From the NCBI GenBank assembly GCA_964402645.1, contig CAYOCV010000012.1, positions 36,622 through 100,621 of the forward strand: 64,000 nucleotides of DNA, in the 5' to 3' direction. The stretch's first letter is position 1, and every line of letters begins with the position of its first letter. Below are positions 6,856-37,991 of this stretch, one piece after another. The stretch is from an uncultured Desulfovibrio sp. (GTDB lineage: Bacteria > Desulfobacterota > Desulfovibrionia > Desulfovibrionales > Desulfovibrionaceae). Below the pieces are notes generated by a model. That model had not been told where the DNA came from and made no database searches. It was given only the letters and a program-made list of their open reading frames with translations. Position numbers and translations under genes: made by a program.

Positions 6856-8223
6856 ATGCATGTCAAATACCTGATCATCGGCGCAGGCCCCACGGGCCTT
6901 GGCGCGGCCCACCGACTGGCGGAACTGGGCGAACGCTCCGTGCTGGTGCTGGAGCGCAACCCCCATGCCGGCGGGCTGGCCGCCAGCTTCCGCGATGCGG
7001 CGGGGTTCACCTGGGACATCGGCGGGCATGTGGTGTTTTCGCACTACGAATATTTCGACCGACTGGTGGAAAACCTGCTGGACGGGCAGTATCTGGAGCA
7101 CATGCGCATCGCGCGGGTACGCATTGCCGACCGCTGGGTGCCCTACCCCTTCCAGAACAACATCCGCCACCTGCCGCCGGACATGCAGTGGGAATGCGTG
7201 CAGGCCCTGCTGCCCGGCCGCAGGCCCGAACAGCACCCCACCAACTTTGCGGAATGGTTCGAGTATGTCTTTGGCGCGGGCATCGCCAAACACTTCATGC
7301 GGCCCTACAACTTCAAGGTCTGGGCCACCCCCGCCGAACTGATGAGCTATCAGTGGATCGGCGAGCGGGTCAGCGTCATCGACCTGGAAATGGTGCTGCG
7401 CAACCTGGTGTTGCAACAGGACAACGTGAGCTGGGGCCCCAACAACCTGTTCCGCTTTCCGCTGCACGGCGGCACCGGGGAGATTTTCACCCGGCTGGCT
7501 GCGCGCCTGGGCGACACGGTACGCCTGAACACCCCGGTGGCATCGGTCGACCCGGCAAACCGCACCGTACGCACGGGCGACGGCGAGACCATCACCTACG
7601 ATCACCTGCTGTCCACCGGCCCGCTGGACATCCTTATCCGCGACCAGATCGGCGCGGGGCCTGCCGCCGCCATGGTGGGCGATGACCTGCGCGCCGCCGC
7701 CGGGCAACTGGCCCGCAACGGGGTATACGTGGCTGGCGTGGGCGTGGACGGCATGCACGATGACGACACCTGCTGGATGTACTTTCCGGAATCCAACGCG
7801 CCCTTCTACCGCCTGACCAACTTCCACAACTACTCACCCAACAACGCGGCCCGTCCCGGCCATCAGCGCGCGCTGATGGCCGAAACCTCATGGTCGGACC
7901 ACAAGCCGGAGCAACTGGACACCCTGATGGACAAGACCATCGAGGGGCTTGTACACACCTCCATGCTCCACCCGGACGAAAAGGAGCGCATCGCCTCGCG
8001 GTGGTCCATTGCCGTGGACTACGGCTACCCGGTGCCCACCCTGGGGCGCGACGCCGCCCTGCGCACCCTCCAGCCGTGGCTGGAAGCGCACGGCATCTAT
8101 TCGCGCGGGCGCTTCGGCGGGTGGAAGTACGAGGCCGCCAACATGGACCATTCGGTCATGCAGGGCGTGGAATGGGCCGGGCGCATGGTGCTCGGCGAAA
8201 AGGAAACCACCTACAAGCTGTGA
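6856..8223 (+). CDS. FAD-dependent flavoenzyme resembling eukaryote-type UDP-galactopyranose mutase
   Basis: Rossmann motif IIGAGPTGLGAA. Blocks GGHVVFSHYEYFD, WVPYPFQNNI, FMRPYNFKVWA, WGPNNLFRFPLHGGTG, CWMYFPE..APFYRLTNFHNYSP and SRGRFGGWKYEAANMDHSVMQGVE match my recollection of fungal and kinetoplastid UGM. Start at MHVKYL (6856). Confidence 0.75.
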   Translation: MHVKYLIIGAGPTGLGAAHRLAELGERSVLVLERNPHAGGLAASFRDAAGFTWDIGGHVVFSHYEYFDRLVENLLDGQYLEHMRIARVRIADRWVPYPFQNNIRHLPPDMQWECVQALLPGRRPEQHPTNFAEWFEYVFGAGIAKHFMRPYNFKVWATPAELMSYQWIGERVSVIDLEMVLRNLVLQQDNVSWGPNNLFRFPLHGGTGEIFTRLAARLGDTVRLNTPVASVDPANRTVRTGDGETITYDHLLSTGPLDILIRDQIGAGPAAAMVGDDLRAAAGQLARNGVYVAGVGVDGMHDDDTCWMYFPESNAPFYRLTNFHNYSPNNAARPGHQRALMAETSWSDHKPEQLDTLMDKTIEGLVHTSMLHPDEKERIASRWSIAVDYGYPVPTLGRDAALRTLQPWLEAHGIYSRGRFGGWKYEAANMDHSVMQGVEWAGRMVLGEKETTYKL

Positions 8224-8260
8224 TGCGGCCGCCAGACCGGCGACCCGATTCGGGACCACC

Positions 8261-9331
8261 ATGAATGCACAACGCTACGAGGCGCGGCGCGAAGCACTGC
8301 GTGCCGCCATGCGCGAGAAAGGCCTGTCCGCCCTGCTGGTCAGCTACGCGGCCAACCGGTTCTATCTTTCCGGCTTCGAACTGCACGACGAGCAGTTGAA
8401 CGAGAGCGCCGGGTACCTGCTGGTCACCGCCGACGGCAACGACTGGTTGTGTACCGACCCCCGCTACCTCGACGCGGCCCGCCGCCTGTGGCCCGAAGAG
8501 CGCGTGTTCATCTATTCCGGCGATGCCGCCGGGCAACTGAACGCGCTGATCAAGGACAAGGTGCGCGGCACCGTGGGCTTCGAGGCGAAGACCACCACCC
8601 TGACCTTCTTCGACAAGTTTGCGCCCGGCCTTGCGCTGGAACGCGCCGACGGCATGGTTGAGGCGCTGCGCATCATCAAGGAGCCCGAAGAAATCGAGTT
8701 GATGCGCCGCTCCGCCGCGCTGAACCACCGGATGATGGAATGGCTGCCCTCTGTTCTGGCGTCTGGCCGCACCGAAAAGGAAATCGGCTGGGACATCGAG
8801 AAATACTTCCGCGAACACGGCGCCAGCGGCTTGTCGTTCCCGTGCATTGTGGCTGCGGGCGTTAACGGGTCCCTGCCCCACTACCGCGCGGGCAACGCCG
8901 TGCTGACCGAAAACTGCCCGATTCTGGTAGACGTGGGCGCGCGGCTGGACCTGTACTGCTCGGACCAGACCCGCACTTTCTGGGTGGGCGACAAGCCCGC
9001 CGACCACTACACCCGCGCACTGGAGCAGACCAAGGCCGCCCAGGCCGCCGCCATAAAGATCATGCGCCCCGGCCTGCCCGTGGCAGACGCCTACCGCGCC
9101 GCGCGCGCCCACTTCGAGGCACAGGGCGTGGCCGCGCAGTTCACCCATGCGCTGGGGCACGGCATCGGCCTGGAAACCCACGAGCCGCCCAGCCTGAACC
9201 CGCGCAACGAAATGATCCTGAAGCCCGGCATGACCGTGACCGTGGAACCCGGCCTGTACTACCCCGAATGGGGCGGCATCCGCTGGGAATACATGGTGCT
9301 GGTCACCGAGGACGGGGTGGAGATACTCTAG
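8261..9331 (+). CDS. M24-family Xaa-Pro aminopeptidase/dipeptidase
   Basis: It has a creatinase-like N-terminal domain (LLVSYAANRFYLSGF) and a pita-bread domain with metal ligands (DVGARLDLYCSDQTRT, HGIGLETHE, VEPG). Start at MNAQRYE (8261). Confidence 0.85.
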   Translation: MNAQRYEARREALRAAMREKGLSALLVSYAANRFYLSGFELHDEQLNESAGYLLVTADGNDWLCTDPRYLDAARRLWPEERVFIYSGDAAGQLNALIKDKVRGTVGFEAKTTTLTFFDKFAPGLALERADGMVEALRIIKEPEEIELMRRSAALNHRMMEWLPSVLASGRTEKEIGWDIEKYFREHGASGLSFPCIVAAGVNGSLPHYRAGNAVLTENCPILVDVGARLDLYCSDQTRTFWVGDKPADHYTRALEQTKAAQAAAIKIMRPGLPVADAYRAARAHFEAQGVAAQFTHALGHGIGLETHEPPSLNPRNEMILKPGMTVTVEPGLYYPEWGGIRWEYMVLVTEDGVEIL

Positions 9332-9366
9332 TCTCAGGACTGAATGTCCGCGCCACAACTACACGA

Positions 9367-9391
9367 AAAGGCCGCCCCAAGGGCGGCCTTT
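9367..9391. terminator. Hairpin between convergent genes (possible bidirectional terminator)
   Basis: aaaggccgccc-caa-gggcggccttt is a perfect 11-bp stem flanked by an A-run and a T-run. Confidence 0.65.
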
Positions 9392-9445
9392 CTTCATGCG
9401 CGTGGCGTGTGCATAGCTCGCACGCCACGCGCGCAGGGCCCGGTA

Positions 9446-9880
9446 TCAGTCCGCTCCCCGGACCGGGTCCAATCGTTCTTCCAGCAGGCGGGCAAACGCC
9501 CCCGCCAGCGCGGCGTCATCGGCAAGCGCGCGCCCGCTCACGGCCACGGCTCCCACGCACCGCCCGTCCGCACCCAGCAGGGGCACCCCGCCGGGCAGGC
9601 TTGTCAGCAAGGGGTCGCAGAAATCGGCCATGGTCAGGCCTCCGTCAAGCAGCCGCTTTCTGAAGGCTTCCGTGGTGGCGCGCATGCGCACTGCCGTGTA
9701 GGCCTTGGCGATGACGATGGGCACCAGCCGTTCCGGAGCCCCGTCCATGCGCACGAAGGCCAGCAGGTCGCCACTGCCGTCGGTTACGCACAGGCAGACC
9801 GGCAGGCCGCCGTCAGCACGGGCCAGGCGTTCTGCCTCCATGGTGGCGTGCAGCGCATCATCCAGCAGTATCGTGTGCAT
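9446..9880 (-). CDS. GlcG/HbpS-like (DUF336) protein
   Basis: C-terminal 144 aa of ORF 9446..10519 starting at MHTILLDDAL. Typical blocks are VCLCVTDGSGDLLAFVRMDGA, AKAYTAV and PGGVPL..DGRCVGAVAVSG. It starts 12 nt after the TRAP permease stop. Confidence 0.75.
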   Translation of the reverse strand: MHTILLDDALHATMEAERLARADGGLPVCLCVTDGSGDLLAFVRMDGAPERLVPIVIAKAYTAVRMRATTEAFRKRLLDGGLTMADFCDPLLTSLPGGVPLLGADGRCVGAVAVSGRALADDAALAGAFARLLEERLDPVRGAD

Positions 9881-9891
9881 GGCGGCCCCGC

Positions 9892-11820
9892 CTACAGCAG
9901 GCACAGCGAAATGGCCGGAATGTAGGTGATGGCCATGAGCAGCGCGATCATGGCGACCAGGAACGGCCAAGCCGCACGCACCACGTCGCCGATGCTCACC
10001 TTGCTGATGCTGCTGGCCACGAACAGGTTCACACCGACCGGCGGCGTGATGAAGCCGATGGCCAGGTTCACCACCATGACAACACCGAAGTGGATGGGAT
10101 CGACGCCCACCTGCGTCACCAGCGGCAGCAGGATGGGGGTGATGATCACGATGGCCGCCAGGGCCTCCATGAACGTGCCCACCCACAGCAGGAACACGTT
10201 GATCAGCAGCAGGATGGCGATCTTGTTGCTGGTCACGCCCAGGATCATGGCTGCGATATGGTCGGGCACCTGCTCGATGGTCATGATGTTGCCGAACAGG
10301 GTGGCCATGGCCATCAGCACGATGATCACCGACGAGGTCTGCGTCGATTCCACCATGCAGTCCCACATCCCGCGCCAGGTGATTTCGCGGTAGATGAACA
10401 GGCCCACGATCATGCCGTACAGCGCGGATACCGCCGCCGCCTCGGTGGGCGTCATGATGCCGCCGTAAATGCCGCCCAGCACGATGACCGGGACCAGCAG
10501 CGCCCACTTGGCTTCCCACATGGCCTGCGCCACAGAACGGAAGTCACGGCGCCGCGCCTCGCCGCGCCAGCCTTTTTTCAACGAGATGTAGTAGGCCACC
10601 GCCATGAGCGCCAACCCGCACAGCACCCCGGGCACGATGCCTGCCAGGAACAGCTTGCCCACCGAAGCCTGCGCGGCCACGCCGTACACCACAAAGGGGT
10701 TGCTGGGCGGAATCATCACGCCGATGCACCCGGCGGACGCCACCACCGCAGCCGCGAAGAACTTGTCGTAGCCGCGCTCGACCATGGCCGGAATGGTGAT
10801 GCTGCCGATGGCCGCCACCGTGGCCGGGCCAGAACCGCTGATGGCGGCAAAGAACATGCACGTCACGATGGTGGCCAGCGCCATGCCGCCGGGCAGTGCG
10901 CCCACCAGTTCATCGCCCAGGGCCAGCAGGCGGCGCGAAAGCCCGCCCGCGCCCATGAACACCCCGGCGGCGATAAAGAACGGAATGGCCAGGATGGGAA
11001 AGCTGTCGATGGACACGAACGCAACCTGCGCCAGGTATTCCAGGGGCAGCGTGCCCGCGCCGAGCACCGTGGCGATGGTGGCAAGGCCCAGCGAAAAGGC
11101 GATGGGCACCCCGATCAGCAGGAACAGCACGAAGTAGCCGAACAGCAGCCACACCGCACTCCACTGGTCGGAAAGCAGCACCGGCAGGAACAGCAGCGCG
11201 CCGCAGGCAATGCCGCCCACCACGTCCAGGGCGGGCATGGTGCGCGCCTGCCGCCACATGTCCTGCACGGTGCGCAGGGTCATGAGGAAGAACCCCACCG
11301 GCAGGATCAGGTACGGAATGAAGTACTTGATGCCCATGGCGGGCGTGGTCTGGGGCATGGCGAGTTGCATCTGCACATGGCCGAACCCCATGTAGCAAAG
11401 CGCCCCCGTGAGCACCAGCGTACAAGACCCCACCACGACCCACGCCACGTCTTGCAGGCGCGGCGGCAGTTTTGCGCACAGCACGTCCACCCGGATGTTG
11501 CTGCGCTTCATGATGGCCACGGGAACGGCAAGATAGGAAATCCAGATGAACAGATAGCGGGAGAGTTCTTCTGACCAGACCGACCAGCCGATGATGCGTT
11601 GCAACCCGGCTTTCAGCCCCGCGACGTCGATGAACCTGGCAAGAAAGGTTACCGTGCCCGCGTCGTTGAGCATTTCGTTAATCGTGGCCATGGAATAGCG
11701 AAAACCCGTCTGGTAGGTGATGGTCAGGATCATGACCATCAGCCCCAGCACCAGAAAGGGCTTTTCCAGCCACTCGTTGACGGCGGTCCAGGAGAATGTG
11801 TTTCGTTCAGACATGTGCAT
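9892..11820 (-). CDS. TRAP transporter fused small+large permease (DctQ-DctM fusion)
   Basis: This 642-aa polytopic membrane protein has a DctQ-like N-terminal 4-TM region followed by a DctM-like 12-TM region. It sits directly downstream of a DctP gene. Confidence 0.9.
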   Translation of the reverse strand: MHMSERNTFSWTAVNEWLEKPFLVLGLMVMILTITYQTGFRYSMATINEMLNDAGTVTFLARFIDVAGLKAGLQRIIGWSVWSEELSRYLFIWISYLAVPVAIMKRSNIRVDVLCAKLPPRLQDVAWVVVGSCTLVLTGALCYMGFGHVQMQLAMPQTTPAMGIKYFIPYLILPVGFFLMTLRTVQDMWRQARTMPALDVVGGIACGALLFLPVLLSDQWSAVWLLFGYFVLFLLIGVPIAFSLGLATIATVLGAGTLPLEYLAQVAFVSIDSFPILAIPFFIAAGVFMGAGGLSRRLLALGDELVGALPGGMALATIVTCMFFAAISGSGPATVAAIGSITIPAMVERGYDKFFAAAVVASAGCIGVMIPPSNPFVVYGVAAQASVGKLFLAGIVPGVLCGLALMAVAYYISLKKGWRGEARRRDFRSVAQAMWEAKWALLVPVIVLGGIYGGIMTPTEAAAVSALYGMIVGLFIYREITWRGMWDCMVESTQTSSVIIVLMAMATLFGNIMTIEQVPDHIAAMILGVTSNKIAILLLINVFLLWVGTFMEALAAIVIITPILLPLVTQVGVDPIHFGVVMVVNLAIGFITPPVGVNLFVASSISKVSIGDVVRAAWPFLVAMIALLMAITYIPAISLCLL

Positions 11821-11897
11821 GGTCTCCGGAATATGGCGGGCGGACAGGAAAATGGGGGGAGGCTCGCCCCTCCCCCCGACGGACCGGGCACGCAGTG

Positions 11898-12905
11898 TTA
11901 CTTCTGCGTGTCCTGCACGAGCTTGATCAGTTCAGCGGGAAGGGTGACGGTGTCCCACACCGGGCGGGTGAGCTTTCGGAATTCGTCGATCTCCGCATCG
12001 GTGGCGTCATGGATGGCAATGCCCGCCTTGACGAAGCCTTCACGGGCGGCCTTTTCGTTTGCGGGGTACAGCACATCGCGCTGGTACTGGGTGGCCTCGC
12101 GGGCGGCTTCGTTGATGACCTGCTTGGCGGCGTCGGGCAGCGCATCCCACCACCCCTTGTTGGCCATGGCGACCTGCATGCAGTAGTTGTGGGCCGAGGT
12201 AATGGCGTACTTCAGCACTTCGTGGTGCTTGGCGCCGAACAGATGGGGAAAGGTATTGCCTTCGGCGTCAATGGTGCCCTGTTGCAGGGCGGTGTACACT
12301 TCGCCCCAGGCGATGGGCGACGGGTTGGTGTTCAGCGCCTTGGCCACGCCCACTTCCACGGGCGAATCGGTGGTGCGCATCTTCAGCCCGGCAAGGTCAG
12401 CAGCCTTGTTCAGCGGGCGCTTTACCGAAACGAAGTGGCGGTAGCCGTATTCCGCGTACATGACGGGCTGCAGGCCCACATCGTTGGCCACCTTCAGGAA
12501 GTAGTCGTACAGCGCGCCGCCCGGATCGATGGCGGCGTACAGGCTTTTCTGGAACTTGGGCGAGGTGATGTAGGGCAGGTCGAACACCGAATACAGCTTG
12601 GAGAAGTTGGCGAGGTTCGGGGTAGAGCTGACGCCGATTTCCAGGGTGCCCTTCTGCGCCCCCTCAACCAGCACGCGGTCACTGCCCAGAATGGCGTTGG
12701 GGAACACCTGCACGGTAATCTTGCCGCCGGACTTTTCCGCCACCAGATCCGCAAACTTCTGATAAGCCAGGGTGATATGGTTGCCAGGAGGCGTAGTGTG
12801 CGCCAGGCGGAACTTGATTTTCGGACCGTCATAGGCCGCCATGGCGGGCGCGGCCAGAACTGCCGTCACAAGCAACGCTACTGCCAGCATGACTGCTCTT
12901 TTCAT
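11898..12905 (-). CDS. TRAP transporter substrate-binding protein (DctP family)
   Basis: Signal peptide MKRAVMLAVALLVTAVLAAPAMA, then DctP blocks (KFRLAHTTPPGNH, FPNAILGSDRVLVEGAQKGTLE). ATG at 12905 is preceded by GGAGAG. Confidence 0.9.
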   Translation of the reverse strand: MKRAVMLAVALLVTAVLAAPAMAAYDGPKIKFRLAHTTPPGNHITLAYQKFADLVAEKSGGKITVQVFPNAILGSDRVLVEGAQKGTLEIGVSSTPNLANFSKLYSVFDLPYITSPKFQKSLYAAIDPGGALYDYFLKVANDVGLQPVMYAEYGYRHFVSVKRPLNKAADLAGLKMRTTDSPVEVGVAKALNTNPSPIAWGEVYTALQQGTIDAEGNTFPHLFGAKHHEVLKYAITSAHNYCMQVAMANKGWWDALPDAAKQVINEAAREATQYQRDVLYPANEKAAREGFVKAGIAIHDATDAEIDEFRKLTRPVWDTVTLPAELIKLVQDTQK

Positions 12906-13070
12906 GGATTCTCTCCTTGTGCTACACGGTTCACCATCATCGACCATGCGCATCACATGCCCATGACCGATATGATACAGTTCATTCTGTTTTCATGATG
13001 CTGTATCCTTCAGGCCTCTGCGCGATCTACGTCCCCCCGGCCAGGGGCGGCGCGTTCTGGGCGAGTAAGT

Positions 13071-13086
13071 TGCAACCCACATGCCG
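13071..13086 (-). promoter_or_regulatory. Candidate sigma-54 (-24/-12) promoter for the TRAP operon
   Basis: The minus strand reads CGGCATGTGGGTTGCA, with GG and GC at the canonical 10-nt spacing. It is about 165 nt upstream of the dctP start, and a PAS/sigma-54 activator is encoded divergently. Confidence 0.5.
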
Positions 13087-13369
13087 CAACTTGGGATTTT
13101 TGGAACAAATAAAAAACACCCTGCGAATCCGCGCTGTTATAATTCCACAGCGACGGACGACAGAAGAATGATGCGGCGCATTGACCTTGAAATCGTCCAG
13201 ACAACCAGACACTTTTTTGCAATAGCGCCGGTTTGCCATACGCCTGTGCGAACAACTGGTGGCCATGGGGCGAAAAAGACCATAAAAACAGAAGTGCCTG
13301 CTCACGCCCTTTTATGCACATGTGCTTCTTGGCACGCAATGTAAAGCCATACTGCAAACAGGATTACGC

Positions 13370-14791
13370 ATGTCAAAAATCCATGATGCTATAAACAGCA
13401 ACGCAGTGTCATTTCTGGTGTTCGACCATTTGCCAATGGGTGTTCTGTATTGCGATGCAGACTACGTGATCCGCTTTGCTAACAAGGCCTATGCCGAATT
13501 GCTGGGCAAGCGACCGCAAGACCTCATCGGCAAGAACATCACCGAAGTCATTCCATCGTCACGCGCGCCCGAAGTAATGCATACCGGCAAGGCAGAAATG
13601 GGCGATCTGTGCAGCATCCCCGGCCCCAGAGCCGACCAGAAGCTGGTGGTCAACCGCATTCCCGTGCGCGATGACGCAGGCTCGCTGGTGGGCATGATCT
13701 CGCAGGCCATCTTCAATGATCCCAGCGAATTAAAGCGTCTTTCCAACAAGATAGACCAGCTTGGGCAAAAGCTCAGCCAGTACAAGCGGCGCATGGCCGC
13801 CACGCTGCATGCCCAGTATTCGCTTGCCAGCCTGAAGGGGGACAGCGCCCCCATGCGCCAGATCCGCGACCGGCTGCGCAGCTACGCCCGCATGGACGCG
13901 CCGGTTCTCGTCCTGGGCGCGACCGGCACGGGCAAGGAACTGGCCGCCCACGCCCTGCATGCCGAAAGCAAGCGCGCGGCCGGGCCACTGGTCAGCATCA
14001 ACTGCGCGGCCATCCCCAAGGATCTCTTTGAATCCGAACTGTTCGGGTACGTGCGCGGGGCTTTTTCGGGCGCGCATCACGGCGGGAAAATGGGCCAGAT
14101 AGAACTGGCCGACGGCGGCACCCTGTTTCTGGACGAAATAGGGGACATGCCCCTTCAGGCGCAGGCAAAGCTGCTGCGCGTGCTGGAAAGCCGCACCATC
14201 TGCCGCGTGGGCGCGGTGACGGCGGAACCCGTGGACTTTCGCCTCATCGCCGCCACCAACCGCGACATCAAGGACATGGTGCGCGACGGCTCGTTCCGCG
14301 AAGACCTTTATTACCGCATCAACACCTTCATCATAGAAATTCCCTCATTGCGCGACAGGGCAGACGACATCCTGCCCCTGGCGCACCATTTCCTTGCGAA
14401 AATGGGCCACGACGATCTGACCTTCACCCCCGCTGCCGCTGCCGCGCTGCACGCGTTCGAGTGGCCCGGCAACATCCGGCAATTGCACAACGCCATCCTG
14501 CATGCCGCCACCATGCGCGAGGGCAACGCCATAGACGTCTGCGCGCTGCCGCCGGAAATACGTCCGGCCCACGCGGCCCCGGCGGCATCCTGCCCGCCGC
14601 CGCAAGACCACAACGGCCTTGCGGAAATTCTGGCGCACAGCGAGGCCGCGCTTATAGAAACCGCCCTGCGCGAGCAGGGCGGAAACGTCACCAAGGCCGC
14701 GTCGGCACTGGGTGTTTCGCGGGCTACCTTGTATGAGAAAATGAAGAAACACGGCGTCCGGGCCGTGCGGACCCGCGACGACAAGGCGTGA
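13370..14791 (+). CDS. Sigma-54-dependent transcriptional activator with N-terminal PAS sensor (no receiver domain)
   Basis: PAS region (VLYCDADYVIRFANKAYAELLG). AAA+ domain with LVLGATGTGKE, ESELFGY, GAFSGA and LFLDEIGDM. C-terminal Fis-type HTH AASALGVSRATLYEKMKK. Start at MSKIHD (13370). Confidence 0.9.
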   Translation: MSKIHDAINSNAVSFLVFDHLPMGVLYCDADYVIRFANKAYAELLGKRPQDLIGKNITEVIPSSRAPEVMHTGKAEMGDLCSIPGPRADQKLVVNRIPVRDDAGSLVGMISQAIFNDPSELKRLSNKIDQLGQKLSQYKRRMAATLHAQYSLASLKGDSAPMRQIRDRLRSYARMDAPVLVLGATGTGKELAAHALHAESKRAAGPLVSINCAAIPKDLFESELFGYVRGAFSGAHHGGKMGQIELADGGTLFLDEIGDMPLQAQAKLLRVLESRTICRVGAVTAEPVDFRLIAATNRDIKDMVRDGSFREDLYYRINTFIIEIPSLRDRADDILPLAHHFLAKMGHDDLTFTPAAAAALHAFEWPGNIRQLHNAILHAATMREGNAIDVCALPPEIRPAHAAPAASCPPPQDHNGLAEILAHSEAALIETALREQGGNVTKAASALGVSRATLYEKMKKHGVRAVRTRDDKA

Positions 14792-14840
14792 TTGGCCAGA
14801 AGCGGTAAACAGGCAGGCCCGCCAGCAAATGCACCACGCA

Positions 14841-14870
14841 ACAGGCCCGCCCCACAAGGGACGGGCCTGT
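14841..14870 (+). terminator. Hairpin plus T-rich tract after the activator gene
   Basis: The stem is acaggcccg....cgggcctgt, followed by ctttcttcc. Confidence 0.5.
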
Positions 14871-14936
14871 CTTTCTTCCTATCCTGATGCAGCATCGCCC
14901 GGCGCGAAAAGCCCGCGCCGGGCAACGCCTGCGCGG

Positions 14937-16679
14937 CTACTTGGGGAAGTGCCGCTTGTCCAGGTGCTCGTACTTGGGCAGATGCCGGGTGGGCAGGGCC
15001 AGGGCGTCGCGCCGGAAGGGCGGGGCCAGGCGCGTGCCGTCGGTCATGATTTCGATGACCGAGGGCTTGCGGCTCTTGCGGGCGGCGTCCAGGGCATCGG
15101 CCAGGTCTGCCTGGGTGTTCACCTTGTAGCCCACGGCGCCCATGGCTTCCGCGATCTTGGCGTAGGAGTTGGACCAGATGTCCGCGCCCACGAAGCGGTT
15201 GTTGTAGAAGTCCACCTGGTTCTTCTTTTCCGCGCACCAGGCCCCGTTGTTGTACACGGTGGCGATGACCGGCAGGTTGTACTGCACGGCGGTGGGCACC
15301 TCGAACAGGCTCATGCCCCAGGCGCCGTCACCCACGATGGCCACCACCTGGTCTTCGGGGCAGGCCAGTTGCGCGCCCAGACCCGCCTGATAGGCGAAGC
15401 CGGTGTTGCCGAACGTCAGCGTGGAGATGTGACGCTTGGCGTTGCGGAAACGCAGGTAGCTGTTGGCCGTGGACGAGGTGTTGCCGATGTCCGTGGTGGC
15501 GATGGCGTTGTGCTCGGTAACGAAGCGGCCCACCACCTCCAGCGCCTTGCGCGGATGCATGCAGCCATCCTGCACCGGTTCGTCGGCAATGGCGGCGATT
15601 TCCTTGTACCAGTCTGCCAGCTCGGCCTTGACCATGCCGTACACGGCGTCGTCACGCTTGGGGTTCGGCATGGCTTCGCGCACGCGGGCCAGCAGTTCCA
15701 CCGAGGCGTCCCTGGCGTCGGCGCACAGGCCCACGGCCACGGGATGGGTCTTGGCGATGTGGCGGGGGTTGATGTCGATCTGGACGATCTTGGCGGTCTT
15801 CGGGAAGTAGTTGATGTCGTACTGCGGCAGCGTGCCGAAGTAGGACAGCCGGGTGCCGATGGCCAGGATGACGTCGGCCTGCTGCAGGATGCGCATGGCA
15901 GCCTTGGACCCCATGTACCCGATGGGACCGGTCCACAGCGGATGGTCGCAGGGGAAGGCGTCGTTGTGCAGGTAGGTGCAGGCCACCGGGGCGTTGAGGT
16001 GCTCGGCCAGGGCCTTCACCGTTTCCAGCGCGCCGGAATCCACCACGCCGCGACCAGACACGATGACCGGGCGCTTGGCCGACTTCAGCACTTCCACCGC
16101 GTCGCGGAATTGTTCGGGATTGCCGATGCCCCCGGGGGCCACGCGGTACTGCGACGGGGCCAGAATGTCTTCGTCCAGTTCGCCATAAAAGTAGTCGCGC
16201 GGAATATCCACCAGCACCGGGCCGCGTTCGGCGTAGGCGATGCGGAAAGCGGTGCGCAGGATGTCGGCGGCGCGCTTGGGATGCGGCACGCGCAGCGACG
16301 CCTTGGTGATGGGCTTGAACAGATTCCAGGTGTCGCATTCCTGAAAGCCGTCCCAGCCCACCGAAATGCTGCCCGCGCTGGGGGACAGGACGACCATGGG
16401 CGTGTGGGCCATGTTGGCCGTGGCCACCGCCGTGACGTAGTTGGTGATGCCGGGGCCGTTCTGGCCAATGACCACACCGGCCCTTCCGGTCATGCGGGTG
16501 AATGCGTCTTCCATGTGCCCGGCGGTCTGTTCGTGCCGGACGGAAATGAAATCAATCCCCGCAGCGGGGAAAAGGTCCAGCAGATCCATGAAGGCCGACC
16601 CTAGAATGCCGCTGACGTGCGTGACGCCTTCCTGCACAAGGACTTCAGCCATTGCTTCACTGGGGGTCATCTTGGGCAT
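14937..16679 (-). CDS. xsc: Sulfoacetaldehyde acetyltransferase-like thiamine-diphosphate enzyme
   Basis: This 580-aa protein is of the acetolactate-synthase superfamily. The N-terminus [39 protein letters not shown] closely resembles the Xsc signature as I recall it (IIGSAFM..DLFP.AGI..; [13 protein letters not shown]). The ThDP motif is GDGAWGMS...NNGAW. AAGGAG lies 6 nt before the ATG at 16679. Confidence 0.7.
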
Positions 16680-16780
16680 GATGTGCTCCTTGAAAGTGTA
16701 AAATCACGCTGTCGGATGTCCGGCCGGTAGACATCCGTCCATCCCGACTAACGGGTGGAGCCAGTGTGTCCCCCCCTTGT

Positions 16781-16796
16781 TGCAAAACATGCGCCC
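16781..16796 (-). promoter_or_regulatory. Weak candidate sigma-54 promoter upstream of xsc
   Basis: The minus strand reads GGGCGCATGTTTTGCA. GG/GC spacing is correct and the -24 element is imperfect. It is about 100 nt upstream of the xsc ATG. Confidence 0.35.
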
Positions 16797-17043
16797 AACA
16801 CGCACCAACAAAACAACACACTGATATTGAACATGTTTTTTGCAAATCTGCTTTGTGCGGCATCACTCCTCCACGCAGACTGTCCAGACATCCATACAGT
16901 CTGCGAATAGCCGTCTGATTGCTCCGACACTCCTTGGTTAACGCCTTCCGATCTTCTCTCCATCTTGACACGCACGCCCTGCCGGGGCACCTCCCCCGTA
17001 CCGGCGGCCTGCTTCCCCAGTCCCTGCTCCCACATGTTCCCGC

Positions 17044-17583
17044 ATGCTCCCGCATGCTCCCACTGTCCCCGCAGGGCCGCCGCCACCGTCACCCACAGGA
17101 GATTCCGTGGCCCGCAAACGCCCCCGCAAGCCTTCACCGCCGTTGCCGCCGCCGCGCGCATCGTCGCGACTGTACGCGCGCATCGCGCCCCGGCACATCG
17201 CCATGTTCCGCTTTCTGCTGGAGGCGCAGGACAACCTGGGCTACATGACCGTGCTTGATCGCGGGGTCGGGGGGATCGGGTGGGCCGGGGGCGCGGACGA
17301 CAACGGTGTGACCGGCAACGGTCCTGACGGCAGCAGCACGGAAGGGGACGGACGCCCCGCAGAGGGCGGCACCTCCGGCGCACCTTCCGGCGGCACCTCA
17401 GACATCTCCCCCGCCAACAGGGCCAAGGGTACCGCCGCACCCGGTGTGGACGCGGTGCTCAAGATCGTGTTTTCGCCCCATCAGGAACGGGAGATGCGCG
17501 CCTTTCTCGACGGCATGCGCGCCACCATTCCCTTCACGGTCTTCGAGTCGCCGTTGCGCGGGCAGGCCGGGCCGGTGAGATAA
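17044..17583 (+). CDS. DUF4911-like small protein split by a Gly/Thr/Ser-rich insertion
   Basis: The conserved-looking ends are YARIAPRHIAMFRFLLEAQDNLGYMTVLD and AVLKIVFSPHQEREMRAFLDGM, separated by low complexity. The start is uncertain (ATG 17044 or GTG 17107). The family call is from memory. Confidence 0.5.
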   Translation: MLPHAPTVPAGPPPPSPTGDSVARKRPRKPSPPLPPPRASSRLYARIAPRHIAMFRFLLEAQDNLGYMTVLDRGVGGIGWAGGADDNGVTGNGPDGSSTEGDGRPAEGGTSGAPSGGTSDISPANRAKGTAAPGVDAVLKIVFSPHQEREMRAFLDGMRATIPFTVFESPLRGQAGPVR

Positions 17584-17597
17584 CGTCAGCGGCGAGG

Positions 17598-17646
17598 CTG
17601 GCAGGTCTGGCCGGACTGGCAGGCCTGGCCGGACTGGCGCGGCAGG
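17598..17646. repeat. 18-bp tandem repeat (about 2.7 copies of CTGGCAGGYCTGGCCGGA)
   Basis: Read directly, immediately downstream of the 17583 stop. Confidence 0.7.
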
Positions 17647-17711
17647 CACATAACAGCCACAACAGGCACACTGGGGCCGACGTTCCGCCCCCTTGCCCAT
17701 GCAGCCATGAC

Positions 17712-17752
17712 AAACGAGCGGGGCGCACCGACATGGTGCGCCCCGCTCGTTT
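17712..17752. terminator. Bidirectional terminator-like perfect 18-bp hairpin between convergent genes
   Basis: aaacgagcggggcgcacc-gacat-ggtgcgccccgctcgttt, followed by gtttc. An A-run and a T-run are built into the stem ends. Confidence 0.7.
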
Positions 17753-17786
17753 GTTTCTGCCTTGGCAGACCCTTTCCGCGTTTCCT

Positions 17787-19322
17787 TCAGAACAGCGTGC
17801 CCTGTTCCCCCGCCCCGCCGCGCAGCGCCTGCATGCGCCGGATGTACGCGCCCACGTCGAACTTGGAGCGCGCACCGTTGTAGGTCATGGAGCGTATGGT
17901 TCCCTGCACGGGCCGCTCGCCCCACGGGCGATCATGTACGCCCCCTGCTGACCATGCAATGCCGGTGTAGCCGTTGCTGTCGCGGCCATCCAGAAAGTAG
18001 CGGTCGTTCAGGGCCACGGCCACGCGCACGGCGTCTTCGGGCGTGGGCGACCACAGCAGTATCTGCTTGGCCCAGTACATGCGCAGGTAGCCGTGCATGC
18101 GCCCGGTAACCACCATTTCGGTCTGGGCCGCGTTCCATAGCGGGTCCGCCGTGCGCGCGGCCTCCAGTTGGGCTTCGGCATACAGGGCCGGGCGCTGATC
18201 GCTGCGGTGCTTGTCCAGCGTGGCGCGCGCCCAGTCGGGAAAGCAGGTGACAGCGTCGTAGTCCTGCGCGTGCAGGCAGAAATTGTCGGCCAGTTCGCGC
18301 CGCACGATCAGTTCTTCCAGAAACGAGGCCCGGCACTCGTCCGGCGCTTCGACATGAGCCTGAGCCGCCAGCGCAACCCGCTGGGCGGACAGCATGCCGA
18401 AGTGCAGGTACGGCGAAAGGCCGGACACGCCGCCCGCGTTGGGATCGTTGCGCAGGTGGTAGCGGTGCAGGCGGGAATGGATGAAGTCGTCCAGCGTGGC
18501 GCGGGCCGCGTCTTCTCCGGGAGTGATGTCCGCTATGCCCGGCAGCGGACCCACCTCGCCCACGCTGCGGTCCACGGGCAGGTTGTCGCGCAGGGACGCC
18601 CAGTCCACCTCGGGAACCGGCAGCGGCCATGGGGGACCAGATACGGAGGATACGCCCGTCTCGCCAGACGCGCCGGTCGTAAAACCCTCGGGCGGCAGCG
18701 CGGGGATGGGGGTGAGGAATTCCGGCAACAGGCGATGGATTTTTGGGCGCAGGGTGCGGGCCGCGTATTCGCGCTTGGGCGATGCCGCCCGGCAGGGCAC
18801 CACGTTGCGGGCATCCACCTCGTGCAGGGGGCAGAACCTGTCCAGTCCGCGCGCTGCGGACGCCAGCCACGCCCGCTTCACCCGCAGCACGTCGAAGTCC
18901 GTGACCACCAGCGACGCGCCCACCGCGCGGGCGTACTCCACCACTTCTTCCGGCGGGTTGCCGCGCAGCACCACAAGGGGAATGCCCGCCGACGCAAGAT
19001 GACGCCGGGTTTCCTCCATCCCGCGCAGCAAAAAGCCGAACTGGCGAATGGTGGCCCCCAGAAAGCTGTTCGCCAGGCACCACACCACGGCCAGCGGCGC
19101 GCCCAGCCGGGCCGCCTCTGCATGGGCATACAGCAGCGCCCAGTTGTCGCGGGCGCGGTGTTCGCGGTGCATCCAGTACAGCACCGGGCCATCCGCTGGC
19201 TTGTGCCCCGATGTTGCGCCCGGTGCCGGAGGTGTGGCGGGTCCGCCATGCATGCCCACCACGCGGCGAGGGTCCACGACCAGCGAAAGACCCGACGGAG
19301 TGTACGCGTCCTGCGGCTTCAT
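17787..19322 (-). CDS. Class II CPD deoxyribodipyrimidine photolyase
   Basis: N-terminal LYWMHREHRARDNWALLYA matches the class II signature (YWMxRDxRxxDNWAL). It has a FAD-binding C-terminal domain (WNAAQTEMVVTGRMHGYLRMYWAK). Confidence 0.85.
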   Translation of the reverse strand: MKPQDAYTPSGLSLVVDPRRVVGMHGGPATPPAPGATSGHKPADGPVLYWMHREHRARDNWALLYAHAEAARLGAPLAVVWCLANSFLGATIRQFGFLLRGMEETRRHLASAGIPLVVLRGNPPEEVVEYARAVGASLVVTDFDVLRVKRAWLASAARGLDRFCPLHEVDARNVVPCRAASPKREYAARTLRPKIHRLLPEFLTPIPALPPEGFTTGASGETGVSSVSGPPWPLPVPEVDWASLRDNLPVDRSVGEVGPLPGIADITPGEDAARATLDDFIHSRLHRYHLRNDPNAGGVSGLSPYLHFGMLSAQRVALAAQAHVEAPDECRASFLEELIVRRELADNFCLHAQDYDAVTCFPDWARATLDKHRSDQRPALYAEAQLEAARTADPLWNAAQTEMVVTGRMHGYLRMYWAKQILLWSPTPEDAVRVAVALNDRYFLDGRDSNGYTGIAWSAGGVHDRPWGERPVQGTIRSMTYNGARSKFDVGAYIRRMQALRGGAGEQGTLF

Positions 19323-19442
19323 GGCATCCTCCCTTCCCCCGTGGGGCTGCCGCCCACGCCGCGACAGTGCCGCACCGGGCAGGCAGGACGGACAGCACTG
19401 CCGGGACCGGCCAGAGCAGCCGCGACCAGCCAGAGATGGCGG

Positions 19443-20252
19443 TTAGTGCGCTTCCAGCGAATCCATGCACGACTTGAGGTCGCAGATCATGTCCAGCACG
19501 TCCATGTTGTGGTTGACGCGCCAGTAGAACTCCTCGACCTCGAAGGGCTTGGTGAGAAAATCGTTGGCCCCGTTCTTGAGAAACTGGGCGGTCAGCGGCC
19601 CGGACCCCACCGAGGATACCCCGATGATGGCCACGCGGTCCATCTTGTGGCGGCCACGCAGTTCGCGCACCAGTTCGATGCCGTCCATGTTGGGCATCTG
19701 GTAGTCCGTAATCACCAGACGGGTGTGCGGATTCTGTTCGAACACGGCCAACGCTTCCACACCGTCCACAGCCTCCAGCACGCGAAAGCGCTGCACTTCC
19801 AGCAGCTTCTTGATCTGGGCGCGTTGGGTGCGCGAATCGTCCACCACCAGCGCGGTGATGAACTGGTTCTTGAACACCCGCTCCAGGCTGGCCACCATGG
19901 GGTCCATGTCCTGGATGGACCCCTTGAAGAAATAGTCCACCACGCGCCGCTCGATGAACCGGCGGCGAATTTCGTCGTTGAAGGTGGCCGTCAGCACGAT
20001 GGACGGCACCTTCCAGGCCAGGCACAGGTCCACGGCCTCGCCGTCGGGGGCGTCCGGCAGGTTCAGGTCGATGACGGCGATGAATATCTGCTGGCCATTG
20101 TCGCGCAGCAGGGTCTCTGCTTCCTGCATGCTGTGGGCGATGAGGGTGTCGAACTGGGTAAGCGCCTGAATCTGCTTGCGGATGATCTTGGACTGCACGT
20201 TGCTGTCCTCGATGATCAGCACCGTGCGCGGCGCTTCTGCGGTCATGTTCAT
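19443..20252 (-). CDS. Response regulator with two receiver domains and no output domain
   Basis: Two REC modules are present. REC1 has VLIIEDS...VIDLNLPD. REC2 has ALVVDDS...ITDYQMPNMDG...TKP. Confidence 0.85.
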   Translation of the reverse strand: MNMTAEAPRTVLIIEDSNVQSKIIRKQIQALTQFDTLIAHSMQEAETLLRDNGQQIFIAVIDLNLPDAPDGEAVDLCLAWKVPSIVLTATFNDEIRRRFIERRVVDYFFKGSIQDMDPMVASLERVFKNQFITALVVDDSRTQRAQIKKLLEVQRFRVLEAVDGVEALAVFEQNPHTRLVITDYQMPNMDGIELVRELRGRHKMDRVAIIGVSSVGSGPLTAQFLKNGANDFLTKPFEVEEFYWRVNHNMDVLDMICDLKSCMDSLEAH

Positions 20253-30776: not shown

Positions 30777-31505
30777 ATGATGGGTAAGCTGCTTTGGATC
30801 GCCATCGCCTACGTCATGGGCTCCATCCCCTTCGGGCTGGTGTTCGCCCGCACCTTCTGCGGGGTGGACCCGCGCACCGGCGGCAGCCGCAACGTGGGGG
30901 CCACCAACGTGGCCCGGCTGTGCGGCACCAAGTGGGGCATGGCCACCCTGTTGTGCGACGCGCTGAAGGGCGCGCTGCCCGTGGCCATCGCCATGTCGTT
31001 CAGCGATTCCGCGTTCTTCCACAGCCTGACGGCGCTGGCCGCCCTGCTGGGCCACCTGTATTCCTGCTTCCTGGGCTTCAAGGGGGGCAAGGCCGTGGCC
31101 ACCACGGTGGGCGTGTTCATTCCGCTGGCTTTCGGGCAACTGGTGCTGGCGGGCATCGCCTGCCTGCTGGTGATCTGGCGCTCCGGCTTCGTCTCGCTGG
31201 GTTCGCTGACCCTGGTCACGGCCCTGCCCGTGTTCCTGCTGGTGTACGGCAAGTGGAAGCTGCTGCCGCTGGCGCTGGTAGTCATGGCCCTGGTGTACTG
31301 GAGCCACCGCGAAAACATCGGGCGTCTGGCGCGCGGTGAGGAAAAGCCCTGGCAGAAGAAGCACCACGACGCTGCGCCCACCGGCAGCACACCTGAAGAG
31401 ACGGGCGCGCCTGAAGCACCTGAAGCGGCGGACGCAAACACCGCCACGGCCTGCGGCTGCGGCTGCGCCGCGCACGGCGAAGCAGACGCCACGTCCGAAA
31501 AGTAG
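30777..31505 (+). CDS. plsY: Glycerol-3-phosphate acyltransferase PlsY with C-terminal extension
   Basis: [23 protein letters not shown] and [10 protein letters not shown] are present. Confidence 0.9.
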
Positions 31506-31593
31506 TTTTCACGGCGTCGCCCCGGCCTTGTTGCCAGTGCCACGGCAAGGCGCCACAACTGCTGCATTGCACGATTTCAAGGAGACCGGCCCA

Positions 31594-33526: not shown

Positions 33527-33601
33527 TATGCCGACGCAGTTCCTGCCTGTGCCGTGTATTCGCAAACAATCCCATACGGGCCAAGCCCGGGGAGAATCCT
33601 G

Positions 33602-36073: not shown

Positions 36074-36144
36074 CATCCGCATTCACGGGGCAGGGGGCGG
36101 CTGACGCCCCCCCCCTGCCCCGCCACCACGGGAAGAGGCACCCC

Positions 36145-37047
36145 ATGCAGGACAAGGAACGGACAGGCATCATCTTCAACATACAGAAGTATTCCGTGCA
36201 TGACGGCGCGGGCATCCGCACCATGGTCTTCTTCAAGGGCTGCCCGTTGCGCTGCGCCTGGTGCAGCAACCCCGAATCGCAGCAACTGCGGCCGGAACGC
36301 GGGTTCAACCGCTACAAGTGTCTTTCTCCGGCTGTGTGCGGCTACTGTATCCCCGCCTGCGCCAAAGGGTGCATCCTTGACATAGAGGGCCTGCTGGCCA
36401 TCGACTACACCCGCTGTGACGGCTGCCTGCTCTGCGCCCAGGCCTGCCCTACCGGGGCCATGAGCGTCTACGGCGAAAGCCTGAGCGTGGCCGAGGTGCT
36501 GGCGTCGGTGGAGCAGGACGCGGTGTTCTATGCCCGATCCGGCGGCGGCATGACCCTGTCCGGGGGCGAGGTGATGCATCAGCCGGACTTTGCCGTGGCG
36601 CTGCTGCGCGAGGCCCGCCGCAGGCACATCAACACGGTGATGGAAACCTGCGGCCACTGCGACGGCGACGCGCTGGTCGAGGCCTGCCGTCATCTGGACA
36701 CGTTGATCTTCGACATCAAGCACCTGTCCAGCGATGTACACCGCGATGGCACCGGCGTCGGCAACGAACGCATTCTGGAAAACTTCCTCCGCGTGTGTGC
36801 CGCATTTCCCGCATTGCCCATCATTGCCCGCACCCCGGTCATCCCCGGCTTCAATGACACGGAGGCCGACATCCGGGCCATTGCCCGGTTTCTGCCCAAG
36901 CGCGCCAACCTCGTCCACGAGCTGCTTCCCTACCACCGCATGGGCCAGACCAAATACGAATTCCTTGGGCGCGCCTTTCCCATGGGCGGCGCGCAACTGG
37001 CCACCGGCACACTGCGGCGGTTGCAGGACGTGTCCATGGCCCGCTGA
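36145..37047 (+). CDS. Glycyl-radical-enzyme activating enzyme (radical SAM)
   Basis: FNIQKYSVHDGAGIRTMVFFKGCPLRCAWCSNPES contains CxxxCxxC. Two ferredoxin-like Cys clusters follow (CGYCIPAC, CDGCLLCAQACP). Confidence 0.9.
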   Translation: MQDKERTGIIFNIQKYSVHDGAGIRTMVFFKGCPLRCAWCSNPESQQLRPERGFNRYKCLSPAVCGYCIPACAKGCILDIEGLLAIDYTRCDGCLLCAQACPTGAMSVYGESLSVAEVLASVEQDAVFYARSGGGMTLSGGEVMHQPDFAVALLREARRRHINTVMETCGHCDGDALVEACRHLDTLIFDIKHLSSDVHRDGTGVGNERILENFLRVCAAFPALPIIARTPVIPGFNDTEADIRAIARFLPKRANLVHELLPYHRMGQTKYEFLGRAFPMGGAQLATGTLRRLQDVSMAR

Positions 37048-37094
37048 TCCGTCGCGCCCTTGCAGTCTGTTTCTCGCACAGGCAGCTTTTTTCT

Positions 37095-37124
37095 CCGGCA
37101 TCCCGAAAGGGATGCCGGTTTTTT
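37095..37124 (+). terminator. Intrinsic terminator after the activase
   Basis: ccggcatccc-gaaa-gggatgccgg is followed by TTTTTT. Confidence 0.8.
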
Positions 37125-37177
37125 GCGCCATGTGTTCCGGATGGTGCAAATCGGCACAGCAGGCCGCCCGGCACGTC

Positions 37178-37905: not shown

Positions 37906-37991
37906 CCCCCACCGTCTGTCCGGCTGTCAGCCCGAATACCCGCCTTGCTGCCCCTCCCATTGACCGGCCGGTTGCCCTTTCCCCGCCCGGA

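Follow-up and report, generated by a model that had tools for sequence, protein, structure and literature searches.

The stretch of DNA analyzed here (the window) comprises 64,000 nucleotides from an uncultured Desulfovibrio sp. and has a G+C content of 60–70%. This article concerns a locus at positions 9446–16796 of the window, for which an earlier note, made from the sequence alone, had listed five genes. All five are present: a gene for a DUF336/GlcG-like protein, the genes dctQM and dctP for a transporter of the TRAP (tripartite ATP-independent periplasmic) type, a gene for a PAS/sigma-54 activator, and xsc for sulfoacetaldehyde acetyltransferase.

The three transporter-associated genes are located on the minus strand. 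The gene for the solute-binding protein, dctP (11898–12905), encodes 335 aa with a signal peptide and scored 192.7 bits against TIGR00787 (cut-off 175). The fused gene dctQM (9892–11820; 642 aa) contains the DctQ (PF04290) and DctM (PF06808) domains and scored 455.8 bits against TIGR00786 (cut-off 268). The last gene of the operon (9446–9880), here called glcG, encodes a DUF336 (GlcG/HbpS-like) protein of 144 aa that is predicted to be cytoplasmic (PF03928, 88.3 bits, cut-off 25). It starts 11 nt past the dctQM stop codon, which fits co-transcription. The activator gene (13370–14791, plus strand; 473 aa) is followed by xsc (14937–16679, minus strand; 580 aa), probably the second copy in its genome. 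Since xsc runs along the minus strand, tail-to-tail (convergent) with the activator gene, its promoter region is 16680–17040 and not the space between the two genes. The earlier description of xsc as lying beside the activator and a divergent TRAP operon is right about the adjacency; the unit that diverges from the activator gene is the TRAP operon alone.

The Xsc protein was recognized by two specific models, with 776.9 bits against TIGR03457 (equivalog cut-off 676.4) and 858.3 bits against NF005713 (cut-off 620). Against the best model of an acetolactate synthase it reached 383.5 bits, well below its scores for both Xsc models, and a glyoxylate carboligase model was absent among the best 25 model matches. 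The protein contains the thiamine diphosphate (ThDP) enzyme domains PF02776, PF00205 and PF02775, and a GDG-N24-NN motif, within the expected form GDG-N(24–27)-NN, was read in its translation. It is 96–98% identical to proteins from Nitratidesulfovibrio (formerly the Desulfovibrio vulgaris Miyazaki / D. oxamicus / D. termitidis group), the closest being P0001 with 98% identity, and 80–81% identical to the Xsc of the Taurinivorans muris type. No solved Xsc was found in the copy of the PDB that was searched, in which the best match was BbmA with 211 bits. Judged by these models and motifs, the ThDP enzyme is Xsc, as the earlier note had proposed, and the clustering with acetolactate synthase that would have spoken against the assignment was not seen in the profile scores.

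Transporter class and genomic contexts

The proteins encoded by dctP and dctQM have the features of a TRAP transporter, with a signal peptide and equivalents of the conserved arginine pair (R156, R177) in DctP, and both membrane domains in the 642-aa protein. The best solved homolog of DctP is the isethionate-binding protein OaIseP (PDB 8T9T; E 3e-110, 54% identity). Compared with the ligand contacts published for that structure (PMC11668362), all sulfonate contacts are identical in the window protein (Ser95, Asn98, Tyr153, Arg156, Arg177 and Asn217), and so are Trp200 and Asp77, which agrees with the earlier suggestion of a sulfonate-related binding protein. The hydroxyl end of the pocket is different, with the replacements P38T, M39T, A40P, S220P, L221H, D224G, S242C and H244Q, and thus without the residues that are specific to IseP at this end (His244 and the lining residues Pro38, Met39 and Leu221).

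To delimit the pocket classes, 120 database homologs of DctP were compared. The signature T-T/A-P...P-H-G-x-Q is present in nearly all of about 100 homologs at 60–100% identity, a few of which have a third pattern, P-A-P-S...D-L-G-G-Q. The IseP-class proteins (50–56% identity) retain P-M-A...L-D-S-H, and a Bilophila-type group (58–61% identity) has yet another pattern. The window protein agrees with the DctP1 of the T. muris type at 17 of 17 signature residues, and the same 17 residues recur in four loci (L018, L019, L021 and L084; compared loci are cited by their L numbers) with the arrangement tpa-ald-regulator<>dctP-dctQM-DUF336-xsc. Taken together, the retained sulfonate contacts, the changed pocket and the shared signature suggest that the ligand is a sulfonate, that it is probably not isethionate, and that it is probably the same as for TRAP1 of T. 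muris. We therefore assign DctP to a putative sulfonate-binding lineage (IseP/HpsK) with a distinct and conserved pocket. The most likely ligand, as far as residues and gene contexts can tell, would be taurine, which was also proposed for TRAP1 of T. muris on account of its gene context (Ye et al., 2023, PMC10507020).

Two other searches did not help with the ligand. The matches to DctP among the PLSDB plasmids (tblastn) were at most 37% identical and uninformative, and no sulfonate or DUF336 genes were located near the Alcaligenaceae-type homologs (L089, L090 and L094). In two other loci (L091:8297–9745 and L092:5833–7386), lone TRAP-DUF336 modules are located behind a divergent gene for a regulator of 480–520 aa, in which only a C-terminal GerE/LuxR helix-turn-helix (HTH) domain is recognizable. 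The large N-terminal part of these regulators has no family match and could sense the transporter ligand.

A scan of species-representative genomes identified 80 xsc loci, of which 25 are from Desulfovibrionaceae with Xsc proteins 79–96% identical to that of the window, and the synteny mapping presents xsc as a hub gene that is set beside varied modules. In the Nitratidesulfovibrio congeners (L001–L003, L081), tauABC-like genes, ald and tpa are divergent from xsc, phnX and gntR, where the gene after xsc matches the phosphonoacetaldehyde hydrolase equivalog (PhnX; 327.8 bits, cut-off 220). In the Mailhella/Taurinivorans type (L018, L019, L021, L084), tpa, ald and the gene for a PAS/sigma-54 regulator are divergent from dctP-dctQM-DUF336-xsc, and the order and lengths of the genes match TAUVO_v1_1024–1030 of T. 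muris. In T. muris LT0009, the cluster TAUVO_v1_1023–1030 consists of thiC, xsc (1024), an unnamed 411-nt gene (1025), dctMQ1 (1026), dctP1 (1027), a Fis-family regulator (1028), ald (1029) and tpa (1030), and transcriptomic and proteomic data led to the assignment of Tpa-Ald-Xsc to taurine respiration (Ye et al., 2023, PMC10507020). Three loci (L023, L082, L083) have the same arrangement minus the TRAP-DUF336 insert. In the AGCS type (L020, L024, L085–L087), an activator gene is followed by a gene for an AGCS-family symporter, xsc and phnX. The sulfoacetate type (L004, L012) has an activator gene divergent from xsc and from genes for a sauS-like aldehyde dehydrogenase, ADP-forming CoA-ligase subunits and TctABC. 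In L014, finally, xsc and phnX are followed by a convergent gene for an activator that is 64% identical to that of the window.

The absence of pta after xsc had been listed as an oddity of the locus. In the Desulfovibrionaceae loci with annotated neighbors, the gene after xsc is phnX-like, thiC, an activator gene or sauS-like, and no pta was seen beside xsc among these annotated neighbors (a dedicated search for pta was not run). In T. muris, acetyl phosphate was assigned to AckA (Ye et al., 2023, PMC10507020). The missing pta is therefore not odd.

Several other features of these contexts were observed. A phnX gene is located directly 3' of xsc in L081 (12014–12871), L001–L003, L009, L010, L014, L015, L020, L022, L024 and L085–L087, and none adjoins xsc in the window. 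Where genes for a class-III aminotransferase and AlaDH adjoin along with phnX, the cluster might serve both taurine and 2-aminoethylphosphonate. The AGCS transporter (a Na+/alanine symporter) of L020, L024 and L085–L087 is a candidate carrier of taurine or alanine. L082 and L083 encode a 589-aa Xsc identical to that of L084 and differ in that the dctP-dctQM-DUF336 insert between the regulator gene and xsc is absent from the former and present in the latter, so that, within one Taurinivorans-like species, the module apparently comes and goes as a unit. The Xsc-linked clusters of the sulfoacetate type (L004:10001–18371 and L012:1042–11746) encode an acylating aldehyde dehydrogenase that resembles SauS with 482 bits, below the cut-off of 600, together with the beta and alpha subunits of an ADP-forming CoA ligase, TctABC and an activator 47–49% identical to that of the window. 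In Bilophila, the sulfoacetate pathway ends in IslAB, and these clusters would encode a counterpart that depends on Xsc.

The earlier note rightly stated that no role has been assigned to the DUF336 gene, which in our view is what remains most interesting about the locus. The best match of its product in the PDB is EfgA (6BWS; E 9e-15), and the proposed pocket residues of EfgA (K57, S114 and D121) recur in the window protein and in all TRAP-linked members that cover them. The TRAP-linked members have a motif of their own, RLxxExLxxxDFxD. The gene directly follows dctQM in 17 of the 22 TRAP loci of the window class with sequence available beyond dctQM, on contigs that range from 38 to 67% in G+C, and in none of eight IseP-class loci. 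The subfamily adjoins Xsc in four arrangements: that of the window, that of the T. muris type, and those of L100 and L013. In L100, genes for a histidine kinase and a response regulator precede dctP-dctQM-DUF336-xsc, and the Xsc belongs to another subgroup (39% identity; 930 bits against TIGR03457). In L013, the DUF336 gene comes after xsc and the gene for a 47%-identical activator, with no TRAP system.

EfgA is a cytoplasmic sensor that binds hydrated formaldehyde, and the EfgA paper describes DUF336 genes as companions of glc, pdu and other pathways that have aldehyde intermediates, and HbpS as an accessory sensor for a kinase (SenS-SenR). By analogy, it is a reasonable hypothesis that the DUF336 protein at this locus binds or senses sulfoacetaldehyde. 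A bolder proposal, which we consider doubtful, is that it belongs to a new subfamily dedicated to sulfoacetaldehyde that binds the hydrated aldehyde within the cytoplasm, or even that the TRAP-DUF336-Xsc module as a whole handles this aldehyde directly. If so, the DUF336 protein would either pass the aldehyde on to Xsc or report the amount present to the regulator encoded next to it, comparable to EfgA and HbpS. In the stronger form, transporter, DUF336 protein and Xsc would make up a self-sufficient three-part module with which anaerobes could respire the sulfoacetaldehyde of their neighbors, gaining an electron acceptor and one ATP without an aminotransferase or a dehydrogenase.

Regulation, aldehyde supply and alternative explanations

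The activator contains the domains PF00158 (221.6 bits), HTH_8 (52 bits) and PAS_4 (46 bits), and a GAFSGA loop and the Walker A motif GATGTGKE were read in its translation; by these features it is a PAS/AAA+/HTH sigma-54 enhancer-binding protein. Its closest relatives (64% and 47–49% identity) all adjoin xsc in other Desulfovibrionaceae. Candidate -24/-12 promoter elements with nine of 11 consensus positions and intact GG and GC were found on the minus strand in front of both transcription units: CGGCAT-N5-TTGCA about 165 nt 5' of the dctP start codon (13071–13086), for dctP-dctQM-glcG, and GGGCGC-N5-TTGCA about 100 nt 5' of the xsc start codon (16781–16796). Sites of this quality or better (at least 9/11) are located at -110 to -170 before xsc in most of the activator-linked relatives, and the T. 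muris type has a sigma-54-like site directly 5' of xsc, downstream of the DUF336 gene. No comparable site was found before xsc in the GntR-type congeners. In addition, the 13-mer GTCCAGACA(A/T)CCA is common to both upstream regions, about 90–110 nt 5' of each -24/-12 element. The copy before dctP, GTCCAGACAACCA (13195–13207), differs by one mismatch from that before xsc (16882–16894), GTCTGG is repeated on the minus strand, and the copies are tentative activator sites. Around the copy before xsc, the palindrome AGACTGT-N12-ACAGTCT (16877–16902) may be an upstream activator site.

Zero-difference RNA contigs from two soil metatranscriptomes cover xsc, and the TRAP and DUF336 genes were not covered by RNA contigs in these two samples. 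With the usual caveats of assembled RNA, this fits separate transcription units. Among the longest RNA contigs listed, two end at 16755 and 16758, near the predicted start, while the depth continues into 16832–17215, so that the position of the 5' end is imprecise. RNA contigs also cover part of 16832–17215. A coding-looking open reading frame (ORF) of 179 aa is located in the gap between xsc and a photolyase gene (17044–17583, plus strand). This ORF contains ...MFRFLLEAQDNLGYMTVLD... and a low-complexity middle part rich in Gly and Pro, and had no match in NCBIfam. Within the TRAP operon, a scan for terminator-like structures identified a G+C-rich stem-loop of nine pairs, eight of them G-C, in the gap between dctP and dctQM (11854–11877, minus strand). 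As a pattern match only, it is a possible intra-operon attenuator or mRNA stabilizer, and could raise the ratio of binding-protein to membrane-subunit mRNA.

The earlier note had also stated that no enzyme for the formation of sulfoacetaldehyde is encoded at the locus, and had called the Xsc gene an orphan. The first statement holds for the locus and for the 64 kb window, in which a tblastn search with two Tpa and two Ald references found no homologs of tpa or ald. No remnants of tpa were found upstream of xsc, and the DNA similarity to the congeners ends at the borders of xsc (14933–16680), the xsc genes of the Nitratidesulfovibrio congeners being 91–92% identical in DNA and 96% in protein. 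Nor was a C3-to-C2 route (sulfolactate, sulfopyruvate and ComDE to Xsc) indicated among the scanned ORFs of the window, in which the PALP enzyme at 31336–33084 is a threonine synthase.

The second statement is not borne out by the source metagenomes. When contigs of public metagenomes (Logan) were matched to the window, two samples, the sludge metagenome X1 and X2, were found to hold it at zero differences. In X1, contigs with zero differences and a depth of 114–116 span 8000–14958 and 16650–19500, while xsc itself (14929–16677) is broken into short contigs whose depth is about double that of the flanks, with a second variant that has diverged by 5–15%. This combination of assembly break, doubled depth and diverged variant is the signature of a two-copy gene. 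Contigs of X1 also match the taurine cluster of Nitratidesulfovibrio sp. HK-II with 90–92% identity: one of 4646 bp runs from tauABC into ald (depth 90), one of 2570 bp covers ald-tpa and reaches 30 nt into an xsc gene (depth 97), and phnX-gntR are located on a 25 kb contig (depth 100). In both X1 and X2, the taurine cluster is 90–92% identical to that of L001. The depth is 104–123 in X1 and 39–51 in X2 for the window contigs, and 90 and 37, respectively, for the 4646-bp contig, so that the ratio between the samples is alike for window and taurine contigs (2.4–2.6). A second strain is an unlikely source of the taurine cluster, as the housekeeping genes that flank the locus in the window were found only at single-contig depth (at least 85% likeness). 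The depths thus suggest that one genome probably has two xsc copies, one in a canonical GntR-type taurine cluster and one at this locus.

Based on these findings, we favor, with moderate confidence, the interpretation that the locus is a sigma-54-controlled module for the uptake and desulfonation of a C2 sulfonate in a Nitratidesulfovibrio-like sulfate reducer. DctP and the fused DctQM would import a small sulfonate other than isethionate, with taurine as the most likely candidate. Tpa and Ald, which would be encoded in the separate canonical cluster tauABC-ald-tpa<>xsc-phnX-gntR of the same genome, would form sulfoacetaldehyde, which the Xsc of the locus, probably a second copy, would split into acetyl phosphate and sulfite. 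The sulfite would be respired via Dsr, and the acetyl phosphate would yield ATP via the housekeeping acetate kinase, which would make a linked pta unnecessary. The PAS activator would drive the two sigma-54 promoters, and the DUF336 protein would be a dedicated partner of the pathway, most plausibly binding or sensing the reactive aldehyde intermediate.

Several observations weigh against this interpretation. During growth of T. muris on taurine, dctP1, dctMQ1 and the DUF336 gene (1025) were transcribed at 17.7, 1.6 and 0.6 transcripts per million (TPM), compared to 832 TPM for xsc, 753 for ald and 376 for dctP3 (PMC10507020), and with such low levels TRAP1 is not obviously the taurine importer. 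In the mouse gut, dctP1, dctMQ1 and gene 1025 were all well expressed (PMC10507020). The TRAP-DUF336 module is also present without xsc or tpa in the available sequence of five loci (L088, L091, L092, L102 and L105). With only 36% identity, the activator may not be the ortholog of the T. muris-type regulator, and its closest relatives besides that in L014 adjoin clusters of the sulfoacetate type. As for the sigma-54-like promoters that had been proposed for both units, the two elements are in place, but motifs with two mismatches are no more common in the window than expected by chance (81 found, compared to 110 expected from shuffled sequences), so that the promoter calls draw only on position and on the comparison with relatives. 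The shared 13-mer is weak too, with about 0.2 such matches expected by chance. Finally, the assignment of both xsc clusters to one genome is based on depth in metagenomes and not on a closed assembly.

The alternative that survives best is a self-contained scavenging system, which we nevertheless regard as unlikely. According to this explanation, the transporter imports sulfoacetaldehyde or its hydrate from the community, the DUF336 protein binds or buffers it inside the cell and Xsc cleaves it, so that no generating enzyme is needed, and none is indeed encoded at the window locus or around L100 (10 kb upstream and 1.4 kb downstream). The pocket, which differs from that of IseP only at the non-sulfonate end, where it is more polar (Thr, Thr, His, Gln), would suit such a ligand, and the closest solved relative of the DUF336 protein, EfgA, with its pocket residues kept, binds a hydrated aldehyde. 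However, sulfoacetaldehyde is, to our knowledge, poorly documented as a nutrient in the environment, the same pocket signature occurs directly beside tpa-ald in the T. muris-type clusters, and many TRAP-DUF336 modules have no xsc nearby. Scavenging would agree with the finding that TRAP1 and the DUF336 gene of T. muris were uninduced on taurine in vitro and well expressed in the gut (PMC10507020). Against it, IseP bound no sulfoacetaldehyde according to the citation of Peck et al. in PMC11668362, a result that concerns IseP rather than the class of the window protein.

It is also quite unlikely that the genes are adjacent by chance, with the TRAP-DUF336 module importing an unrelated organic acid and xsc being unconnected and separately regulated. 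The module often occurs alone, xsc was transcribed and the TRAP genes were not in the two metatranscriptomes, and the extent of the DNA similarity to the congeners indicates that xsc moved as a single gene. Yet the genes are found side by side in three lineages that are unrelated, which between them have two subgroups of Xsc and three types of regulators, the DUF336 subfamily adjoins xsc and an activator gene without a TRAP system in L013, and DctP retains S95, N98 and Y153, contacts that are specific for the sulfonate.

An isethionate route, in which an importer of the IsePQM type is combined with an unlinked dehydrogenase that forms sulfoacetaldehyde for Xsc, for example the short-chain dehydrogenase/reductase (SDR) at 37902–38765 acting in reverse, seems very unlikely. 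The best solved homolog is an isethionate binder (OaIseP; E 3e-110, 54%) with all its sulfonate contacts retained, and the SDR is present in the same genome region. However, the replacements at the hydroxyl end (H244Q, L221H, P38T and M39T) define a separate conserved class, while the true IseP-class proteins hold the OaIseP pattern down to 50% identity and have no DUF336 gene in any of the eight loci, and the SDR belongs to an HpsG-type locus 21 kb away.

That locus includes the glycyl radical enzyme (GRE) which the earlier note placed within 20 kb of xsc, correctly so in terms of distance (33554–36073; about 17 kb). The GRE scored 1493.4 bits against the HpsG-specific NCBIfam model NF048011 (cut-off 1000), and its best match in the PDB, 6LON, scored 1412 bits, compared to 1285 and 1190 bits for the isethionate lyases 5YMR and 7KQ3. 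The PDB label of 6LON reads only “PFL2/glycerol dehydratase family glycyl radical enzyme”; we take it to be the structure of Bilophila HpsG. We therefore predict that the GRE is of the HpsG type, a sulfolyase of 2,3-dihydroxypropane-1-sulfonate (DHPS), and not an isethionate lyase. The notion that Xsc and the nearby SDR plus GRE are alternative fates of sulfoacetaldehyde, or that two substrates converge there on C2 sulfonates, is highly improbable, because in spite of the short distance, the sigma-54 activators of both systems and the SDR gene after that of the GRE activase, HpsG yields hydroxyacetone and sulfite rather than a C2 sulfonate, and the YihU-like, GabD/SlaB-like and SsuA-like neighbors suggest DHPS and other C3 sulfonates as substrates. 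The proximity of the two loci is most readily explained as a neighborhood of separate sulfonate modules, each of which feeds sulfite to Dsr. The separate locus (33554–47624) encodes the HpsG-type GRE, its activase, the SDR, an SsuA-like ATP-binding cassette (ABC) transporter, a YihU-like dehydrogenase, a GabD/SlaB-like aldehyde dehydrogenase and a second sigma-54 activator (45975–47624). A good -24/-12 match, TGGCACGCTCGATGCT, is located at about 33511, just 5' of the GRE gene, and suyAB were not noticed among the scanned ORFs.

A main way in which hydrogen sulfide forms in guts, sludge and sediments is the respiration of organosulfonates by Desulfovibrionaceae, which is usually predicted from marker genes. 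Our comparison presents xsc as a mobile hub gene, found in taurine modules with ABC, TRAP or AGCS transporters and in sulfoacetate modules with a tripartite tricarboxylate transporter (TTT), under regulators of the GntR or sigma-54 type, and a lone xsc gene does therefore not reveal the substrate. By the residue signature, the binders of isethionate and DHPS are separated from a large class of other TRAP binding proteins. This class spans, among others, Desulfovibrionaceae, Alcaligenaceae and Oceanimonas-type genera, and current pipelines would name its members after the nearest structure, IseP. The DUF336 family, in turn, gains a new context through its close linkage to one transporter class and Xsc.

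Comparison with known systems

The sulfoacetate clusters, known from the pathway of B. wadsworthia (PMC10413351) and linked to Xsc in L004 and L012, share with the window an activator of the same family (47–49%) beside xsc. They differ by the sauS-like enzyme, the CoA-ligase subunits and TctABC of L004 and L012, none of which are encoded in the window. EfgA belongs, like HbpS, to the same fold family (PF03928) as the DUF336 protein and is likewise cytoplasmic, with K57, S114 and D121 in common and a link to a pathway with an aldehyde intermediate. The similarity is nevertheless remote (E 9e-15), the window subfamily has its own RLxxExLxxxDFxD motif, and EfgA has no conserved gene context, whereas the window subfamily is linked to xsc and to a single TRAP class.

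The IsePQM transporter of Oleidesulfovibrio alaskensis (OaIseP, 8T9T; Newton-Vesty et al., 2024, PMC11668362) has a binding protein of the same lineage with identical sulfonate-binding residues. In OaIseP, His244 binds the hydroxyl group of isethionate, whereas the window protein has Gln, and Thr, Thr and His in place of Pro38, Met39 and Leu221. Genes of the IseP class are located with IslAB-type GRE loci and without the DUF336 partner that the window class has. The canonical taurine cluster of Nitratidesulfovibrio (N. termitidis, sp. HK-II and N. liaohensis) shares the genus-level background and an Xsc that is 96% identical. It has an ABC transporter, a GntR regulator, adjacent tpa and ald genes and a gene for phosphonoacetaldehyde hydrolase after xsc, and it lacks the TRAP transporter, the DUF336 gene and the candidate sigma-54-like promoter of the window.

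The closest published parallel is the cluster of T. muris, of which dctP, the fused dctQM, the DUF336 gene, xsc and a sigma-54 regulator gene are present in the window, without adjacent tpa and ald. Xsc is 80–81% and DctP 68–70% identical, the latter with the same 17-residue signature, and DctQM is 642 aa long in both (dctMQ1, 1929 nt), with 59–61% identity to the T. muris/Mailhella type. In both systems, the DUF336 gene directly follows dctQM, the gene for the PAS/sigma-54 regulator is divergent from the TRAP operon, and a candidate sigma-54-like promoter is located directly before xsc. The differences are that homologs of Tpa and Ald are encoded on other contigs of the same samples and not in the window, that xsc is inverted and convergent with the activator gene, whereas it follows the DUF336 gene in T. 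muris, that the activator has 473 rather than about 585 aa (36% identity), that the DUF336 proteins are only 33–34% identical, and that the window xsc is apparently a second copy beside a canonical taurine cluster elsewhere.

The features that made the locus seem unusual are thus mostly explained by the known biology of the Desulfovibrionaceae and by another taurine cluster, of the canonical kind, that is probably present in the same genome. The additions made by the comparison are modest but tangible: a rearranged form of the T. muris cluster that lacks tpa and is built around what is probably a second xsc gene, a well-delimited class of putative sulfonate-binding TRAP proteins, and a DUF336 subfamily that is closely tied to that class and to Xsc.

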